Positions 55,317-64,000 of a stretch of 64,000 bases of DNA are shown here, in pieces. Location: NCBI GenBank assembly GCA_965248445.1, contig CBDFJG010000001.1, positions 1 to 64,000 on the forward strand, read 5' to 3'. A program made the position numbers and the translations under genes. The number at the start of each line of letters is the position of its first letter. Positions within the stretch are counted from its first letter, which is position 1. The stretch is from Planctomycetota bacterium (GTDB lineage Bacteria; Planctomycetota; JAJSAM01; JAJVHW01). The notes under the pieces were generated by a model that was not told where the DNA came from, ran no database searches, and was given only the letters and a program-made list of their open reading frames with translations.

Positions 55317-55537
55317 GCGCCCTCGGGGAGCCCCCTCTGCTACCGAGGGGCCGGGCAACTGCGGCAGTACGATGGATCTTCGCCGTCGCGGCGGGCCCGC
55401 CGTGTGCTGACCGGATCGGGGGTTTACCGGGTCGAAGGTGCGGCGGTCATCCGTCTTCCTGAGGGTCGGTCAGACTTGTTCCTGCGGTCAGACCGGGGAT
55501 TCTGGGACGGGAGGGATCGCTGCACCAACGGACCGGG

Positions 55538-56482
55538 ATGGACCTCGAGCCACGGGCGGGAGCCGGACTCACGCGCCGGGCGCTGCTGTCCGCGTCCATG
55601 GCGGCGATCGTCCTGAGCGCGTGTCGTCGCGCCCCGCTCGTGATCGGACGCCCGGGGGTCGAGCGGGGCGGCGCGTTCCGTCATCCGCGCGCGGTGGCTG
55701 CGTCGCACCACGGACTGGCAGTGCTGGATCGCACCGGGCGACTCCAGATCCTCGATCTCGACGGCAACTTCGTGCGGCAGTTCGCCGTGGCGCCGGACGG
55801 CAGCCGCCGCGGCCTACCGATCGGCGTGACCTGGCTCCCGGACGGAGCGCTGGCCGTCGCGGACACGCACCAAAGCCGCGTCCGCGTCTACGACACCTCT
55901 GGAGAGACACTCCGAACGGTCGGAGGATACGGACTCGAGCCCGGGCAGTTCCTCGCGCCCCAGCGCATCGTCCCCACCAGTGGCGGAGGCCTGCTCGTGA
56001 GCGATCACGGGCTGGGCAAGACCAATCGCGTACAGGTCCTCGACGCCAACGGCAACGCGCTCCTGGTCATGGGCGGCCCGGAGCCGGAGGACGGCGGCCT
56101 GGCCCGCCCGATGGGCGTGCTCGAGACCGACGCGGGTTATCTGGTCGCCGACCAGCGCGCGGGACTGGTGACGTTCGACTCGGCAGGAGAACTCTCGGGA
56201 CCTCCGAGCGGTTGGCCTGCGGAGTGGGACGGGATGACCTACGGACTGACGCGCGACGACGAGGGCTCGCTGTACGTGTCGGATCTCGCCGCAAACCGCA
56301 TCCTTCGTCTCGATTCGCAGGGGACCCCGACGGGTACCTTCGGCAGCCAGGGCCGCGACGCAGGACTGTTCGTGGACCCGTGGGACGTCCAATGGCACGC
56401 GGGACAGCTCTACGTGGCCGACTCGGGGAATCACAGGGTGCAGCGGATCGACGCGCAGCGCGCGGGGTGGAAGGACGTATGA
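55538..56482 (+). CDS. NHL-repeat lipoprotein (Tat-like signal)
   Basis: TRRALL...LSAC; GQFLAPQRI, LYVSD and LYVADSGNHRVQ repeats. Confidence 0.88.
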   Translation: MDLEPRAGAGLTRRALLSASMAAIVLSACRRAPLVIGRPGVERGGAFRHPRAVAASHHGLAVLDRTGRLQILDLDGNFVRQFAVAPDGSRRGLPIGVTWLPDGALAVADTHQSRVRVYDTSGETLRTVGGYGLEPGQFLAPQRIVPTSGGGLLVSDHGLGKTNRVQVLDANGNALLVMGGPEPEDGGLARPMGVLETDAGYLVADQRAGLVTFDSAGELSGPPSGWPAEWDGMTYGLTRDDEGSLYVSDLAANRILRLDSQGTPTGTFGSQGRDAGLFVDPWDVQWHAGQLYVADSGNHRVQRIDAQRAGWKDV

Positions 56483-58698
56483 GCAGCAGTTTCCCCCGAA
56501 TCGGCGGGATGACGTTCCGGGCGATGACGGCCGGCGCGCTCGTCCGATCGCTGCTCGCGGCGCTGGTGCTTGCAGCGATCCCGGCCGCTGCGTTCGCGGA
56601 TGTGGACGTCCGCACCGAGATGGGCCACGCCGGCTCGTGGACCGAGGACGTGAACGCGCCGGTCACGGTGCAGCTGCGCAACTCGGGGAGTTCGCCGGTG
56701 GTCGTGCGCATCGCACTGAGCGATTCGGACCGCTTCTCCGGTGGCTCATACCGGCACGAGAGAAGCGTCGCACTCGGCCCGGGCGCCGTCCGCCGCGAGG
56801 TGTTCCTGGTCCCCGGGCCGACCACGTTCTCCTCGTCTCTCACAGTCGCTCTGACGACGGAGCCACGTACGACGATTCAGGCCGGCGGAACCGCGTTCAC
56901 TCGCGGAGTCGCGTCGGTTGCGGTGACCAACGAGCTCGCGCGCGGCGGACGGGTGCCGCTCTCGGGCCGCATCATCGGCGTCTTGGCGGAGGGCGGCGTC
57001 AGCGCGTTCGCCGACCCGCTGCGCCGCGCTTCCGGCGTGTGGGTAGAAGGCGACGAGATCGACACCGTGGCGGTCATCAGCGTCGATCCCGCAATGCTGT
57101 CGATCGCGCCGTTGGCGCTCGCGGGCCTCGACGCCCTCGTCGTCGTCGCTCCTTCGGCCGGATTCGCCGTCGACGCCCGGGAGCGAGAGGGCCTGCTGGC
57201 GTGGGTCGCGCTGGGCGGCCGGCTCGTGTTCGGTTCGCCGGAGGATCTCGCAGGCGTGGCCCGCGGACCACTTGGGCCAGAGCTTCCGGCCGACGTCACC
57301 TCGATCGGGCGGCAGTCGTACTCCGCGTTCCTGACCGCGCACACCGATCTGCTGCCCGCGAAGCTGCGTCCCAAGCTCCCCCCGAAGTCCACCGCCGGTC
57401 CGTTCGCGGAGCTGCGTCCACGGCCCGGCGGCCGCGCCACCGGCATCGCGTTCGGCGGCGGCCGCTCGCGGGTCGAGCGCGCGTTCGGCCAGGGAACGAT
57501 CGTGATGCTGGCGTACGACCTGCGCCCGGCACTCAGCGCCGCGGACGTGCAGGGCGGGCGGTACGCCGAACGGCTGGCGACAGAGATCACCGGCCGCGAG
57601 GCGCCGATGTCGTACGCCACGCTGCGTGACCAGGCGCTCGACTTCGGGATGTCCCGGCGCGTCGATGTGGACACCGAGTTGCAGAGCGTGCTCTCGCACG
57701 GGGCGTTCGCGCCACCGCCGTTCCCCCTGGTTCTGGGCGCGCTGCTGCTCTACGTCATCGCCGTCGGCCCGCTCGACTACCTCGTCCTCAAGCGCCTCGG
57801 GAAGCAGCGTCTGACCACCTTCACGTTCGCTGCCTCGGTGATCGTGTTCACGGCGCTCGCATACGGCGCCTCGTTCCTCGTCTTCGCCCGCGGCGCGGTG
57901 GTCAACCGCGTCGTGTTCGTGGACCTGGCCAGTGCCGGGGCCGACGGGCAGGCACTCGCGCGCGTCACGGATCTCGCCGGGTTCTACTCGCCGGTCGGCT
58001 CGACGACCGAGCTCAGCTACTCGTTGCCCGCCGCGATCGGCGGCTCGGGTCTGCCCGGATCCGTGTCCACCGGTGATATCGGGCGGTCGCTCGCCATCGC
58101 GATCGAGGGAACGGCTCCCACGCAGCCCCGGGCGCGAGTCGAGGTCGCGTTCCGGTCGCAGCGCAACGTGTGCTCCGTGCTAGCCGGCCCGAGCGCGCGG
58201 TCGGTCGACGTGCTCATCAAGCGGTCCGGCGCAGCGACTTCTGCAGAGGTCACAAACGGACTGCCCGTGGCACTCCACGAGGTCGCGCTCATCGCACCGA
58301 ACGGGCGCGGCCAGTACGACGTGGGCGACATCGCGCCAGGCGAGACGGTCACGATCCCGCTCGGCGCACTGAATCGCGCACGCGGCTCTCGATTCGCCAG
58401 CGGCCAGCAGGACCTCGGCGGAGGTGAGGCCGAGCGGGAGGTGAGGACGTTCCTCACCTTCCTCTCGCGAGTTGGCACGATCGGCATCGACGGCGCCCCG
58501 CCGCGCAAGAACGAGATGCCGGCCGTCGATCCCAATCGCGCGGTCCAGCTGGCGAAGTCGGGGATCGGGCACGGGGACGCGCTCGCCCGCGGACGCGCGC
58601 TCCTGATCGGGTTCGCGGACGAGTCGCCCTTTCCGCTTCCCGCGGATGACGAGAACGGCCGCACCTACGTCGTGGTGCGCAAGGAGATCGATCTGTGA
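56479..58698 (+). CDS. Exported/membrane protein with GATase-like domain, ABC-associated
   Basis: Signal peptide; LAGLDALVV...WVALGGRLV; LLYVIAVGPLDYLVLKR TM pair. Confidence 0.8.
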   Translation: MSSSFPRIGGMTFRAMTAGALVRSLLAALVLAAIPAAAFADVDVRTEMGHAGSWTEDVNAPVTVQLRNSGSSPVVVRIALSDSDRFSGGSYRHERSVALGPGAVRREVFLVPGPTTFSSSLTVALTTEPRTTIQAGGTAFTRGVASVAVTNELARGGRVPLSGRIIGVLAEGGVSAFADPLRRASGVWVEGDEIDTVAVISVDPAMLSIAPLALAGLDALVVVAPSAGFAVDAREREGLLAWVALGGRLVFGSPEDLAGVARGPLGPELPADVTSIGRQSYSAFLTAHTDLLPAKLRPKLPPKSTAGPFAELRPRPGGRATGIAFGGGRSRVERAFGQGTIVMLAYDLRPALSAADVQGGRYAERLATEITGREAPMSYATLRDQALDFGMSRRVDVDTELQSVLSHGAFAPPPFPLVLGALLLYVIAVGPLDYLVLKRLGKQRLTTFTFAASVIVFTALAYGASFLVFARGAVVNRVVFVDLASAGADGQALARVTDLAGFYSPVGSTTELSYSLPAAIGGSGLPGSVSTGDIGRSLAIAIEGTAPTQPRARVEVAFRSQRNVCSVLAGPSARSVDVLIKRSGAATSAEVTNGLPVALHEVALIAPNGRGQYDVGDIAPGETVTIPLGALNRARGSRFASGQQDLGGGEAEREVRTFLTFLSRVGTIGIDGAPPRKNEMPAVDPNRAVQLAKSGIGHGDALARGRALLIGFADESPFPLPADDENGRTYVVVRKEIDL

Positions 58699-59651
58699 CG
58701 CCCGCCATCGAGACCCGTGGACTCACCAAGGTCTACCGCGGCGTCACCGCCGTGCGCGATCTGGACCTCGTCATCGAGGCGGGCGACGCATTCGGGTTCA
58801 TCGGACCGAACGGAGCCGGCAAGTCGACCACGATCAAGATCCTGGCGACGCTCGTCCGGCCGAGCGGGGGCAGCGCCAAGGTGAACGGGACGGACGTGCG
58901 CCTGTCGCCCGAGCGCGTGAAACCGCAGATCGGCTACATGCCCGACGTGCTGGGCGTTTACGACGACATGCTCGTCGGCGAGTACCTCGAGTTCTTCGCC
59001 GCGGCGTATCGGATCCGCGGGCAGGCACGGGCCAGCAAGATCGACGAGGTCCTCGAGCTGACCGACTTGACCGCGAAGCGCCACGCGCCCGTCATGGGGC
59101 TCTCCCGCGGAATGGGACAGCGGCTCGGACTCGCGCGCTGCCTGCTGCACGATCCGAACGTCTTGCTGCTCGACGAACCGGCCGCCGGTCTCGATCCGCG
59201 GGCGCGCATCGAGTTCAAGGAACTCGTGAGCCACTTGCGCGCGCTGAACAAGACGCTCCTGATCTCGAGTCACATCCTCGGTGAGATCGGAGAGATGTGC
59301 AACACGATCGGGATCATCGAGACGGGGCGTCTCCTATTCGCGGGACCGATCACCGAAGCACGCAAGCGGCTCGGCACCGAACGCGTGGTGCGGGTTCGCG
59401 TGCTCGAGGAGGCCGAGGACGATCGCGAGGTGAACGCGCTGACCGACATCCTGCGCGCACACCCGGAGGTCGAAGCGACCAAGCGCGGCGGTGAAGGAGA
59501 GCTGCTCGTCCGTGTGCGCACCGAGGTCGTCGACATCGCGTTCATCGCCAAGGAAGTCGTGCACGCCGGGCTCAAGCTGGTTCACCTCGAGGAGACGTCG
59601 CTCAGCGTGGAGGACATCTTCCTCCAGGTGACCAAGGGCGAGGTCGCGTAG
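58695..59651 (+). CDS. ABC transporter ATP-binding protein
   Basis: GPNGAGKST, LSRGMGQR, LLLDEP and SSH motifs. Confidence 0.97.
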   Translation: MTPAIETRGLTKVYRGVTAVRDLDLVIEAGDAFGFIGPNGAGKSTTIKILATLVRPSGGSAKVNGTDVRLSPERVKPQIGYMPDVLGVYDDMLVGEYLEFFAAAYRIRGQARASKIDEVLELTDLTAKRHAPVMGLSRGMGQRLGLARCLLHDPNVLLLDEPAAGLDPRARIEFKELVSHLRALNKTLLISSHILGEIGEMCNTIGIIETGRLLFAGPITEARKRLGTERVVRVRVLEEAEDDREVNALTDILRAHPEVEATKRGGEGELLVRVRTEVVDIAFIAKEVVHAGLKLVHLEETSLSVEDIFLQVTKGEVA

Positions 59652-59660
59652 CCCCGGTCG

Positions 59661-61331
59661 ATGAACCTGCCCCGGCCGGCCGCCTGGCGTATGCCGATCG
59701 ACGTGATCGCCGGCACCCGCGCCGTGTTCGAGCGAGACTTCATCGTCTACACGTCGCAACGGCGGTTCATCGTGATGCGCACGATCGCCATCGCGCTCGC
59801 CGCCGCGATCACCGCAGCCGTGCTCCTGGGCAACCTGCGCGCCGAGGCCGGCGCGATGGGCAAGTACATCATGACCAGCATGGCCATCACGGTCCCGGCG
59901 CTCGTGCTCCTGCTCGCCCCGGCGATGGCGGCGTCGTGCATCTCCGGAGAGCGCGCCGTGCGAACGCTCGACCTCGTCCTCGCAGCCCCGGTCACGCCGG
60001 CGTCGTTCGTTCTCGCCAAGTTCGCATCCAGACTCGCGACGGTGCTGGTGATCGTGTTCGCAACGCTGCCCGTGTCCGCACTCGCGCTGCTGTACGGAGG
60101 CGTCGCGCCCGCACTGTTCCTCGAGGTGTACCTCTTCTCGACCGCGTGCGCCGTGCTCGGCGTCGCAGCGGGCGTCGTCAGTTCCGCGTACTCGCGAGGC
60201 GTAGCCGCTTCCGTGCTACGCGCGTACTCGATCGCCATCCTGCTTCCGGGGCTCTACGTCGGGCTGCTCGTGGTCGCGGCCATCGTGCTGCGCAACACGG
60301 GTTGGATGAACAGCCCGGACTTCGAGGCCTTGGTGGCGCCGAGCCCGTACGGCGCGTGGACGTTCATGATCGTGCAGATTCAGGGCGTTGGACTCGCGAC
60401 AGGGGCCGTCGGCGCGGCGAGCGGGATCATGATCGGAGTGTCGGGGGTCTGTCTTCTCCTGGCGATGTGGCGCATGGGCCGCGAGTCCGAGGTGCGCACG
60501 GCGCCCGGGAGGGCAACGAAAGTGCGCAAGTCGCGCGTGCCGCTCGAGCGCCCGGCACTGGCGCGCGCCCTGCGTGGCAGCCTGCTCCTACGGCCGACCC
60601 GGGCCACCAAGCTGTTCACCATGGCGGTGCTGATCGCGTGGGGAATCGTGCTGTGGCTCGTCCTCGAAGAGGGGGGCAACGGCCAGGAGTGGGGACACCT
60701 CGGCATGCTCGTCTCGCTGACGGCGCTGCTGGTGCTACGCGTACTGGCGACGTCGCCGTCCCACCTCGCTGGGGCCCGGCGCGCCGGGAGCATGGCCCTC
60801 ATGCTCACGTCACCGGTCGGCCCAGCCGACGTGGTGCACGACGAGTTCGCGGCGGCGTACGGCAACATGTTGCCGCTCCTGATCCTGGGCGTGCTGCACG
60901 CCGCCGTCGCGACCTTCTTCGGACCGCTGCTGCATGAGGCCGCTCTGGCGTGGCTCGCGACAACGACGGTGTACATCGGCCTGGCCGCCGCGATCGGGCT
61001 GCGCATCGGCGCGACTGCAACGTCCGCCGGCCGCGCGGTCCTGCGCACGTTCGCCGTTTTCCTGGGAGGCAGCGTCCTGATCGGTGTCGCCGGCATCGTG
61101 GTCGGGATGGCGACGAACTCGATGAGTGAAGAGTCCATGTTCTGGTTCGGCGCTGCCCCCGTCGTCACCCTCGTCGGCATGCCGCTCTCCACGCTGGGCG
61201 TGACGCTGTCCACCGGCCGCGATGACCTGGCCGTTCCGATCGCGTGCGGCGGCTGGCTCATCCTGCATGGGCTGTGCATCCCGTTCCTGCTGCGTGCCGC
61301 CGTCTCGAAACTGGGCCAGAACGCGGAATGA
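59661..61331 (+). CDS. ABC-2 type permease (duplicated domain)
   Basis: Many TMs; ISGERAVRTLDLVLAAP...AKF motif. Confidence 0.88.
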   Translation: MNLPRPAAWRMPIDVIAGTRAVFERDFIVYTSQRRFIVMRTIAIALAAAITAAVLLGNLRAEAGAMGKYIMTSMAITVPALVLLLAPAMAASCISGERAVRTLDLVLAAPVTPASFVLAKFASRLATVLVIVFATLPVSALALLYGGVAPALFLEVYLFSTACAVLGVAAGVVSSAYSRGVAASVLRAYSIAILLPGLYVGLLVVAAIVLRNTGWMNSPDFEALVAPSPYGAWTFMIVQIQGVGLATGAVGAASGIMIGVSGVCLLLAMWRMGRESEVRTAPGRATKVRKSRVPLERPALARALRGSLLLRPTRATKLFTMAVLIAWGIVLWLVLEEGGNGQEWGHLGMLVSLTALLVLRVLATSPSHLAGARRAGSMALMLTSPVGPADVVHDEFAAAYGNMLPLLILGVLHAAVATFFGPLLHEAALAWLATTTVYIGLAAAIGLRIGATATSAGRAVLRTFAVFLGGSVLIGVAGIVVGMATNSMSEESMFWFGAAPVVTLVGMPLSTLGVTLSTGRDDLAVPIACGGWLILHGLCIPFLLRAAVSKLGQNAE

Positions 61332-61424
61332 GGGCACCGAACCCCCGGGCTGCGCGTCTGTTAATCTGAGAGGGGGCAGTTCCGCTGCCCCACCGACCTG
61401 CCGATATCAGCCTCAGGAGGGCGT

Positions 61425-63128
61425 ATGTCACGGACCGATCGGCTCCTCGCGCGCGTACGGGCGCGCCTCGTGCTCGTGGGAGCGGCTACCGACCTCCAGC
61501 TCGGCCTCGTGGCCGCTGCGGCCGTCGTACTGCTCGCCGTGCTCGGCCGCGCGTTCGCCGTCGTGGTCCTCGACTGGTCCGTGATCGCGGCGATCGCCGT
61601 GATCGCGCTGGTCATGCTGCCGCTCATCGGCCTGATCCGCCGCCGCCGGTCGCCCGCCGCACTGGCCGCTCACGCGGACCGCGGGCTCGCTCTCTCCGAG
61701 CGCGTCTCCACGGCACTCTGGGCCGAGCGCAACGCCGACGTCGCCGGACCGCTGGCCAGCGAGGTTCGCCGCGACGCCGACGAGACGGCTGCAGAGATCG
61801 ACGGTGCGCACATCCGGCGGGCGTTCCAGCCGCGCCTCGAGCGGCGGCCTCTGCTGGCGGCCGCGATGCTCGTCGCAGTGACCGGCGCGCTGTTGTTCGT
61901 CGGACCGGGCGAGGCATCCGTGATCGAGTCCGGCGAGGACCGCGCCGCGCGTCTCGCCGACGAAGAGCGGATCGCGGACGTGGCACGCCGCATGGCACAG
62001 GCCGCGAAGCGCGTCGAGGACCTTGCCGGGGAGCGCAAGCAGGACGATCTCGCGAAACTCGCCGCCGAGATTGCGAAGCAGACACAGCGGATGTCCGCTG
62101 CCCCCCCACAGCGCCCGAAGGCGCTGCAGAAGTTGAATGAACTGGCCGATCAGGCCCGTGCGACGGCGCGCAAGCGCTCCGGCATGAAGACGCCGACCAC
62201 CGAAGCGGAGGCGCGCGAGGGCAACAAGCAGCTCGCCGATCTGCTCCGGAAGATGAGCGCCTCGGGACTCGAGAACCTGCAGAAGGACCTGAAGCAGCTC
62301 ACCGACCGGCTCGACGCCGGCGAGAAGGGCGACTCGCAGGTCAGTGCCGACGACATGCGCGCGATGGCCAACCGCCTCGATGCGCTGGCTCGCGCCATGA
62401 AGAACGCGGACGCGCTCGGCATGAAGGACCTGCGCGAGCAGCTGCAGTCGATCGGCAACGAGGACCTGCTGCGGAAGATCGCGGAGCGCATGCGCGAAAT
62501 CGCCTCGAAGATGGAGGCCGGCGAGGACTACCAGAATCTCGAGAGTCCCGACGCCAACGACCTGGACATGTCCCAGATGACGCGGGAGGAGCTCGAGGAG
62601 CTTCTCAAGCAGCTCGACGAACTCGCCAACATGGAAGACCTCGCCGAGATGCTCCGCCAGGGCAGCCGCGAGATGTCCGGCGGCCGGCGCATGCGCATCC
62701 CGCAGCCCGGTGGGACCTGAAGCGGCGGTGACGGTTCAGGCGGGACCTGAACAGGCGGCGGATCATCGTCGTGCAGTTCGTGCGGCGCAAGTGGAGCGGG
62801 AGCGGGCCAGGGCAGCGGTCAGGGATCGGGAGCCGGCAGTGGCGGCGGCATGGGCGGACCGGGCACCGGAAACGGCGGCACGGCCCCATTCTCAAACGAC
62901 AAGAACGGCACCAGTCCCGACACCATCCGTGGGCAACTCGATCCGACCGGGCGCATCTCGGTGACCACGTTCCGCGGCCTGCCGCGACCCGGTGAGATCA
63001 CCCCGGAGTTCCGGGCGGAGGTCGAGCGTGCGCGCGCCGATGCACAGGCTCCCTTGGAGTCCGAAGTCATCCCGCGCCGCTATCGCGACGGTATCCGACG
63101 CTACTTCGACGACCTCGAAGACGAGTAA
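61425..63128 (+). CDS. Membrane coiled-coil protein with two in-frame TGA codons; candidate selenoprotein (567 aa if read through)
   Basis: ORFs 61425-62720 and 62850-63128 share a frame; only TGA 62718-62720 and TGA 62748-62750 interrupt a Gly-rich linker; SECIS-like hairpins follow. Confidence 0.7.
62734..62752 (+). promoter_or_regulatory. SECIS-like hairpin
   Basis: GTTCAGG-CGGGA-CCTGAAC; 20 nt lie between the first TGA and the loop. Confidence 0.6.
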
Positions 63129-63131
63129 CGA

Positions 63132-64000
63132 TTGAACGCCGTCTTCGAGCGGGACTACGTCGCGTTCAGTTCGTCCCTGCGATTCCTGCTCCTGCGCGGC
63201 GGATTCGCCGCAGCGATGGCGCTGCTGTTCTTCGTCCGCATAGCCGGCGCGTACTCGGGGAAGGACTGGAGTGACGTCGGCTCCACGTTGCTGACGACCG
63301 CCGTCGCGCTCGGCACCGTGCTGCTCGGCGTCGCGGCCCCCGCGTCGTTCGGCACCGTCTTCGTCCACGCACGCGCACGCAACAGCCTGCCGATCCTGCT
63401 TGCGTCCCCGCTGACGCCACTCGGCATCAGCGCCGGTGCGTTCCTCTCGCGCGCAGGACTCCTCGCGCTCCTCGTCCTGGCGGTTGCACCGCCGATGGCG
63501 CTGGCTCTCGTGTTCGGCGGAGTCCGCGGCGCTCAGCTCGTCGATGCGCTCTTCGCGGTCACGTCGACGATGCTGCTACTCGGGGCTCCGGCGTTCGTCA
63601 TCTCGGCGTACGCGCAACGCACTTCCTCGGCGGTCGTCACGGCGTATCTGATTGCGGTCTCCGTCCTCGCGGGCACATGGTTCATGGGAACCTGGATCAC
63701 GAAGGTGACGAGCGATGCCGCCCTCGCCGCCGCGGTCTCACCGCTGCACGCCTACGACGCGGCGATCTCGTTCGAGCGGCTGCCTCCGGCGGCTTTCGGA
63801 TTCTTGTCCGGTCCGTTCGTGCTGCTCGTGCTGTCCCTCTGCGTCGCTGCGGGCGCGATCTTCGTCGCCGCGTTGCGGCTGCGCCGCGAGGCAACCGGCG
63901 CCGTCTCGCGGACCGATCTCCTGACGCGCCGCCAGTGCCGTCCGCTCCGTCGCGAGAACCCGGTGCTCGACCACGAACTGCGACGGGGCAAGTTCCTGCG
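63132..64000 (+). CDS. Second ABC-type permease (partial, runs off the window)
   Basis: TTG start; NAVFERDYVAFSSSLRFLLLR resembles AVFERDFIVYTSQRRFIVMR of the 59661 permease; SLPILLASPLT motif. Confidence 0.8.
   Translation, partial: MNAVFERDYVAFSSSLRFLLLRGGFAAAMALLFFVRIAGAYSGKDWSDVGSTLLTTAVALGTVLLGVAAPASFGTVFVHARARNSLPILLASPLTPLGISAGAFLSRAGLLALLVLAVAPPMALALVFGGVRGAQLVDALFAVTSTMLLLGAPAFVISAYAQRTSSAVVTAYLIAVSVLAGTWFMGTWITKVTSDAALAAAVSPLHAYDAAISFERLPPAAFGFLSGPFVLLVLSLCVAAGAIFVAALRLRREATGAVSRTDLLTRRQCRPLRRENPVLDHELRRGKFL

Follow-up and report, generated by a model that had tools for sequence, protein, structure and literature searches.

A predicted two-selenocysteine membrane protein and its relatives in the Planctomycetota

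Near the end of a 64,000-nucleotide stretch of planctomycete DNA – the window, which comprises bases 1-64000 of contig 1 in a 5.4 Mb genome of four contigs – a gene at positions 61425-63128 of the forward strand runs through two in-frame TGA codons. We conclude from its sequence that it very probably encodes a selenoprotein, with selenocysteine (Sec; U in one-letter code) predicted at recoded UGA, and that both UGAs, at codons 432 and 442, probably specify Sec. One gene of 567 residues with Sec at both positions is the best explanation of the locus as a whole, and one that we hold to be highly probable. As far as we have found, the protein belongs to a widespread and so far undescribed selenoprotein family of the Planctomycetota, whose recoding mechanism would be of a known kind.

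The reading frame and the decoding machinery

The frame that opens at ATG 61425 closes at a TAA and contains just two stops, both TGA, which lie 30 nt apart in the same GGGACC-TGA-A context (coordinates are in Table 1). A preliminary description of this DNA had placed an open reading frame (ORF) of 431 residues and another of 92 residues, starting at ATG 62850, in one frame broken by the two TGAs only, and translation agrees. The Gly-rich linker that it reported between the TGAs, followed by a CxxC motif, also reads exactly as claimed (...RIPQPGGT-U-SGGDGSGGT-U-TGGGSSS-C-SS-C-GASG..., with the motif at C450-x2-C453), and the product ends in IPRRYRDGIRRYFDDLEDE. Homologs match residues 1-567 of the read-through protein within a single frame. 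Standard gene calling yields the 431-residue ORF at 61425-62720, and exactly that product is held in a public collection (P0003). The ATG at 62850 was said to lack a Shine-Dalgarno sequence, and we find nothing of that kind before it, as against the AGGAGG before ATG 61425; independent initiation there finds no support either in TGA-less homologs, in which the GMGGPG motif that takes its Met from this codon is internal.

Both TGAs were checked against sequencing data, as had been proposed: region 62300-63200 recurs with 0 differences in contigs assembled separately from four runs (X4 only from 62425), all of one sample that is possibly the source sample. Sequencing or assembly error was rejected on these identical contigs together with the conservation across genomes.

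The same genome has the genes for Sec decoding, which the preliminary description singled out as a point on which its proposal could fall: a tRNA-Sec (68 bits against a cut-off of 47; ARAGORN anticodon tca), SelA, a SelB wing domain and SelD. The SelD match (locus L011, contig 3, 1080793-1081719, minus strand) holds one in-frame TGA itself, and this genome's SelD is probably, on its sequence, a selenoprotein too. Six of the ten genes of the local cluster terminate at TGA, from which it follows that the meaning of TGA as a stop is not changed, as had been held.

Homologs, Sec/Cys exchange and hairpins

With the read-through protein as query, a homolog was found in 20 of 40 relatives. The seven same-family genomes, at 45-55% identity, each show one in-frame TGA, in the setting ...GG[AS]GGT-U-[SAT]GGG..S-C-G[LTS]-H-G, and all five genomes of family f2 (30-34% identity) have two, in AF-C-QN-C-GL(T)GGT-U-x7-10-GT-U-G; in both groups every match crosses its TGA or TGAs in one frame. 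An order-level search of 17 genomes, all already covered, gave no further homologs. A phylum-wide profile search placed the family in 181 of 401 Planctomycetota genomes, and among the 150 matches listed out of 274, on which all counts of TGA-bearing forms rest, at least 36 genomes from 18 GTDB families carry one to three in-frame TGAs. In the 36 loci, all of which were translated, the TGAs always fall in one short core rich in Gly, which follows the helical stalk and precedes a GMGGPG...IPxxYxxxIxxYF tail, with the frame continuing across them; the conservation of TGA that the preliminary description suggested looking for is thus found, and the TAA or TAG codons that it regarded as incompatible with Sec occur at these sites in no homolog translated. 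Full-length proteins without a TGA (P0002, P0004, P0005, L054 and others) confirm its statement that one and the same polypeptide carries IPxxYRxxIxxYF at its C-terminal end. Each condition that it named as refuting was put to the sequence data, and the outcome favored the proposal every time. Residues 380-567 searched against collections of called proteins returned only four proteins, because such collections split the Sec forms.

Two Sec residues 6-11 apart are the commonest architecture elsewhere in the phylum, and one locus (L069; genome G250, contig 17) has three predicted Sec, in KCPS-U-GEKKDGPSG-U-KGKSGEG-U-PGG. The original claim of a two-Sec protein is right for this gene, in which both TGAs are in frame, but does not extend to most of its same-family relatives, which have one Sec. 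U432 matches their single Sec by its upstream flank (RRxRxxxxGGT-U) and U442 by its downstream flank (U-TGGG..S-C), so that the GGT-U unit is tandemly repeated through the ten extra codons; the two copies, in our own reading of the sequence, are identical at 20 of 30 bases. Decoding of both TGAs is plausible, that of TGA1 being less certain than that of TGA2.

SelA is present in 291 of the 401 Planctomycetota genomes overall and, among the matches listed, in all 36 that have a TGA-bearing homolog. It is nearly absent from families f6 (1 of 20 genomes) and f4 (0 of 5), and none of the 18 matches listed for these two families contains a TGA.

At every kind of site, Sec in one genome is matched by Cys in another. 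The clearest case in a well-aligned, non-repetitive context is L055, where LDGKG-U-RG-C-EGMEDY stands against LDGxx-C-xx-C-xxxxDY in six homologs. CPS-U in L069 corresponds to CPSC in its relative L067, so that the first Sec of L069 is the second Cys of a CxxC; GK-C...GGT-U in L077 stands against GT-U...GGT-U in L070 and L071; L075, with GG-U...GG-C, shows the same kind of exchange, and L080 has two U-x-S-C motifs. Altogether, aligned Cys residues occur at the sites in L054, L056, L057, L059, L063, P0004, L077, L075 and L067, and all-Cys forms have a Cys-rich core, such as CQKC...CEGGQCQGKGKCAGCGQC in L054. Where the site bears Sec or Cys, it has two to four or more such residues, often including CxxC: C-x2-H follows the Sec in same-family genomes and precedes two Sec in family f80, and the window protein has C-x2-C.

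Criteria of the kind used by bSECISearch for selenocysteine insertion sequence (SECIS) elements look for a hairpin downstream of the UGA at the usual distance, with a G early in its apical loop. The scan covered 32 genes with 49 internal TGA sites (L080-L083, with six sites, were left out) and asked for a perfect stem of at least 4 bp and a loop of 3-9 nt that has a G among its first two bases, starts 13-32 nt after the UGA and belongs to a hairpin of -7.5 kcal/mol or lower. Such a hairpin accompanies 40 of the 49 sites, against 4 of the 34 remaining TGAs in these loci, at terminators and past them; in TGA-less homologs 0 of 30 Cys codons have one, and 33 of 276 linker Gly codons do. The mean best energy is -9.9 kcal/mol at TGA sites and -3.5 in 200 mononucleotide shuffles per site, and in 21 of the 49 the loop begins with GGU (GGUC, GGUCU, GGUA or GGUU), a loop type also found in the SECIS element of E. 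coli fdhF. In several homologs of this gene (L018, L019, L066, L070-L077) the terminator is itself a TGA, a few codons past the YF motif, and no qualifying hairpin goes with it; this provides a natural internal control of Sec-UGA against stop-UGA inside one gene.

In the window, the perfect 7-bp hairpin reported after TGA1, with its loop 20 nt downstream and TGA2 in its stem, is where it was said to be. The second hairpin exists as well; it had been called weaker and drawn shorter, and is in fact an 8-bp stem of CGUCGUGC and GUGCGGCG around the loop AGUUC. It occupies the position of a conserved hairpin of same-family genomes, GUCGUGC-GGUCU-GCACGGC, which encodes S-C-G-L-H-G; relative to that hairpin two changes in the arms keep the pairing as G-U and turn the His into Cys. 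Elsewhere in the family, too, the second UGA of two-Sec forms typically falls within the 3' arm or loop of the first hairpin, with nested cases in f2 and others.

Evidence against two Sec residues and alternative explanations

Several observations weigh against Sec at both positions. Hairpins 1 and 2 of the window are equaled by 9.5% and 8.5% of mononucleotide shuffles, the 83-nt window fold is no better than that of dinucleotide shuffles (z = 0.08), hairpin 2 has a competitor in a long lower stem of the minimum free energy (MFE) fold, and neither loop, CGGGA or AGUUC, starts with GGU. A scan of 62500-63000 with Rfam at E <= 10 gave chance matches only and no SECIS family. At the first TGA of the two-Sec forms L025, L073, L074 and L076 there is no hairpin by the strict criteria; when loops of up to 14 nt are allowed, L076 has a strong one (-13.2 kcal/mol), L025 a weak one (-4.4) and L073 and L074 none. 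Hairpin counts and Mann-Whitney P values overstate the significance, because related genomes are not independent, and the Cys and His of SCGLHG, which the two hairpin arms encode, may partly reflect constraints on RNA rather than on protein. The folding check proposed in the preliminary description accordingly favors Sec for the family and does not set the hairpins of the window apart from chance when these are taken alone, and the significance of the hairpins, as a matter of sequence, is to be sought in the comparison with homologs.

Conservation has its own weak points. TGA1 sits in a repeat that this genome alone has within its family (the seven others are without it); TGA-bearing sequences were fetched preferentially, so that the 46 aligned sequences do not form a random sample, and alignment is uncertain in low-complexity Gly-rich sequence. 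Sec and Cys are both missing from the site in some members, among them P0002 and families f3, f6 and f11. P0002, a protein of 569 residues that is 55% identical to that of the window, has lost the whole Sec/Cys motif (GLGRGENGSGDGPGGMG), and the two f6 loci translated, L061 and L062, have neither residue. The expectation that homologs would carry Cys or TGA at both positions is therefore upheld by the conserved TGAs and aligned Cys residues, and fails for P0002, f3 and f6, where the site is dispensable. These members show that the center is not essential to the core function of the family and is an add-on.

The alternative that survives best, although we consider it improbable, is that only TGA2 is efficiently decoded as Sec and that TGA1, in its lineage-specific ten-codon repeat, mostly terminates translation, which would give mainly truncated and little full-length protein. 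The absence of the insertion from the seven other same-family genomes fits this, as do the loop of hairpin 1, which has no GGU and an energy reached by 9.5% of shuffles, and the four other first-site TGAs that are without a strict hairpin, just one of which gains a strong one when longer loops are allowed. Sec pairs 6-11 residues apart, in which the first hairpin embraces the second UGA, are nevertheless common (f2, f51, f73, f78, f80, f87 and f92), and the window, with nine residues between its two and a nested hairpin, fits that pattern; moreover, the repeat copies have diverged and yet both have kept their TGA.

Less probable still is that the TGAs are real stops, with a 431-residue membrane protein and a separate 92-residue protein from ATG 62850, or with a decaying pseudogene. 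Gene calling and the P0003 product are as this would predict, and the window hairpins alone are not significant; against it, 36 of 36 TGA-bearing genomes of 18 families (among the matches listed) keep the frame across their TGAs, the C-terminal domain is conserved, ATG 62850 has no Shine-Dalgarno sequence and encodes an internal Met in full-length homologs, and homologs have Cys in place of TGA. Decay would also bring TAA, TAG or frameshifts, none of which accompany the TGAs. Read-through without Sec, whether through near-cognate suppression with Trp, Cys or Arg or through reassignment of the codon (TGA = Gly, for instance), is scarcely credible: Gly at x would read smoothly in GGT-x-SGG, and GGA is one mutation from TGA in high-GC, Gly-rich DNA, but six of the ten neighboring genes and several orthologs end at TGA, the aligned residue in TGA-less homologs is Cys and not Gly, SECIS-distance hairpins accompany the TGAs and not Cys or Gly codons, and TGA-bearing forms among the matches listed are confined to genomes with SelA. 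We therefore retain the single gene with two predicted Sec residues in what follows.

Protein architecture, gene neighborhood and possible role

The protein was modeled with AlphaFold2 (AF2) on the 46-sequence alignment, with a mean predicted local distance difference test score (pLDDT) of 80. Residues 1-160 (61425-61904), with ten-residue block means of 86-98, form helices 3-43 and 51-72, a small helical domain at 77-133 and helix 140-159. The 70-residue domain between the membrane helices has an ADRxLGLxERVSTAL motif, and the N-terminal membrane domain to which it belongs is conserved even in Sec-less members. In the 46-sequence alignment P550 is invariant and Y560 and F561 are nearly so. 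The charges around the helices point to a topology in which the N-terminus is inside, followed by the transmembrane (TM) hairpin, the 70-residue domain in the cytoplasm and the third TM helix, with the stalk, the Sec site and the C-terminal domain outside the cytoplasm, in the periplasm; this reading follows the positive-inside pattern of an Arg-rich N-terminus, RRRR after TM2 and RRAFQPRLERRP before TM3, and an acidic stretch after TM3.

Table 1. Features of the predicted selenoprotein gene and its neighbors (positions on contig 1; the window ends at 64000)
Feature	Position	Strand	Remarks
NHL-repeat protein	55538-56482	+	
DUF4350-like protein	56485-58698	+	
ABC transporter ATPase	58695..59651	+	Pfam ABC_tran, E 2.4e-25
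ABC-2-like permease	59661..61331	+	ends at TGA; weak ABC2_membrane and GldF-like matches; conserved upstream neighbor
Shine-Dalgarno-like AGGAGG	61415..61420	+	4 nt 5' of ATG 61425; direct sequence reading
Whole selenoprotein gene, predicted	61425..63128	+	567 codons plus TAA 63126-63128; TGA = predicted Sec at codons 432 and 442
TM hairpin, residues ~24-43 and 51-72	61494..61640	+	AF2 helices 3-43 and 51-72, pLDDT > 90; Arg-rich N-terminus and RRRR flank
Third TM helix, residues 140-159	61842..61901	+	AF2 helix; preceded by RRAFQPRLERRP
Long helical (coiled-coil-like) stalk, residues 170-417	61932..62675	+	AF2; block-mean pLDDT mostly 82-97, dip to 66 at 371-390
Gly-rich, predicted disordered Sec/Cys segment, residues 431-519	62715..62981	+	AF2 pLDDT < 50 for 431-506 and 509-519
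TGA1, predicted Sec432 (GGT-U)	62718..62720	+	in ten-codon GGT-U repeat absent from other same-family genomes
SECIS-like hairpin 1, GUUCAGG-CGGGA-CCUGAAC	62734..62752	+	7 bp, -8.4 kcal/mol; loop starts 20 nt after TGA1; TGA2 in 3' arm; in MFE fold
TGA2, predicted Sec442	62748..62750	+	downstream flank is that of the single TGA in other same-family genomes
SECIS-like hairpin 2, CGUCGUGC-AGUUC-GUGCGGCG	62767..62787	+	8 bp (5 G-C, 3 G-U), -9.3 kcal/mol; loop starts 24 nt after TGA2
Cys450-x2-Cys453 (TGC...TGC)	62772..62783	+	Cys-x2-His at this place in relatives
Conserved C-terminal two-helix domain	63003..63122	+	AF2 helices 527-546 and 551-566; ends in IPRRYRDGIRRYFDDL
Second ABC-2-like permease	63132..64778	+	runs past the window; conserved downstream neighbor in same-family genomes
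Protein with two vWA domains, GATase1-like	to 67690		past the window; Pfam domains
MoxR AAA+ (AAA_3)	to 68709		past the window; Pfam domains
DUF58 protein	68722-69597		past the window; Pfam domains
BatA_N + vWA protein	69594-71450		past the window; Pfam domains

No family is recognized by existing models. For the window protein NCBIfam release 20 gave 0 matches at E <= 0.01, and Pfam no family at the same cut-off, with just a sub-threshold MnmE_helical match; 19 family members searched against Pfam at E <= 1 share no family, and Foldseek found no match of the full-length model in the PDB at E <= 0.001. The neighbors of a natural Cys-form homolog in the ESM Atlas are only 'hypothetical protein' clusters of Planctomycetota. 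Proteins of the DUF4175 / TIGR02302 type in Alphaproteobacteria have two or three N-terminal TM helices, a long Gly/Gln-rich extracytoplasmic region and a MoxR/DUF58 neighborhood, and so resemble the window protein in architecture; their models match neither the window protein at E <= 0.01 nor the 19 family members at E <= 1 (Pfam), and homology is therefore not shown.

Among the 119 prokaryotic selenoprotein families inventoried in Table 1 of PMC13188914 (May 2026), compared by their descriptions there, no entry resembles this family, and other new families are listed for deep-Sep (PMC12013277). The statement that the protein is not among known selenoprotein families thus holds for Pfam, NCBIfam and that inventory as tabulated. 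S9 Table of PMC4807772 (2016) gives an unnamed 'hypothetical' selenoprotein candidate of planctomycete P1 with a Cys homolog in Rhodopirellula sallentina, which could be a member of this family. Among the papers listed on selenoproteins, SECIS and Planctomycetota we found no description of the family, and among the best-ranked matches no relevant paper that joins selenoproteins with MoxR, von Willebrand domains, BatA or aerotolerance.

The family shares with SelB- and SECIS-dependent selenoproteins, such as FdhF and the metal-binding UxxU proteins of Table 1 in PMC13188914, an in-frame UGA, Sec/Cys exchange and a genome with selA, selB, selC and selD, and likewise a hairpin right after the UGA with a G-rich apical loop, in many cases GGUC-like. 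It differs from the families curated in that inventory in having no sequence relation to them; unlike thioredoxin-like or enzyme-fold selenoproteins, it carries Sec in a linker that is disordered and rich in Gly, within a helical protein tethered to the membrane, and, unlike the known selenoproteins compared, it has one to three Sec per protein and a first hairpin that often encloses the next UGA.

The gene was described as part of an ABC operon, and the ABC ATPase and the permeases do adjoin it; the conserved context is wider, however, and is an ABC-2 / vWA-GATase1-like / MoxR / DUF58 / BatA cluster. The order permease, selenoprotein, permease, vWA/GATase, MoxR and DUF58 is kept in the same-family genomes of L034 and L036-L038, and the selenoprotein gene adjoins a vWA/GATase1-like gene in families f2 and f3 and in the distant member L058. 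Downstream, the genes from 64775 to 71450 form a Bat/MoxR-type cluster joined to the ABC-2 transporter and the DUF4350-like protein. Upstream, the listed ORF of 1086 codons at 55438-58698 (plus strand) covers an NHL-repeat gene (55538-56482) and a DUF4350-like gene from about 56485 in different frames; it is probably two genes, and its first third an out-of-frame read of high-GC DNA.

Bat stands for Bacteroides aerotolerance, and Bat clusters hold a MoxR AAA+ protein, a DUF58 protein and the vWA proteins BatA and BatB. The neighborhood here, with MoxR (AAA_3), DUF58, BatA_N+VWA and the vWA/GATase1-like protein, is conserved in the manner of the Bat and MoxR-vWA clusters treated in PMC3557215 and PMC5700661. 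As far as those accounts go, the window protein differs from the named Bat proteins in having no vWA, TPR or AAA domain, and the cluster from theirs in adding an ABC ATPase, two ABC-2-like permeases and the DUF4350-like protein.

We propose that decoding would follow the ordinary bacterial route, with SelB and Sec-tRNA(Sec) recruited by the mRNA hairpin after each UGA. The three N-terminal helices would anchor the protein in the cytoplasmic membrane, and the helical stalk, the flexible Gly-rich segment and the small C-terminal domain would follow. U432, U442, C450 and C453 would then most likely form a metal-binding or redox-active center, flexibly tethered to the end of the membrane-anchored stalk and serving the ABC-2 / vWA / MoxR / DUF58 / BatA cluster; in relatives the same center would consist of Sec, Cys and His, of CxxC with two Sec, or of Cys only. 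A metal-binding center or a redox center of selenylsulfide or diselenide type is suggested because two to four or more Sec/Cys residues occur at the site, CxxC is frequent and CxxH alternates with CxxC. Metal and redox functions are not separable on these grounds, and we regard a center of either kind and some other role as about evenly balanced.

More tentatively, and with considerable doubt, we suggest that a flexible four-ligand chalcogen center, carried across the phylum by proteins that are tethered to the membrane and probably face the periplasm – Sec2Cys2 here, and elsewhere Sec-Cys-His, CxxC with Sec2, up to three Sec or all Cys – might serve the MoxR / vWA / BatA machinery as the element that senses or handles metals or oxidants. 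If the proposed reading is true, SECIS elements of a first UGA that contain the second would represent an arrangement used repeatedly where Sec codons lie close together, and the natural series of variants with zero, one, two and three Sec, together with their Cys counterparts, would lend itself to the study of how such codons are recoded. The prokaryotic selenoproteome, which as inventoried in PMC13188914 consists mostly of single-Sec enzymes with a thioredoxin fold, would gain a widespread family, with at least 36 Sec-bearing genomes from 18 families among the 401 sampled, that is routinely mis-annotated as two genes. A Sec/Cys center would be placed in a type of MoxR-vWA-BatA cluster whose biochemical role is obscure, offering an experimental handle on it, and the function of this cluster would be selenium-dependent in many Planctomycetota.

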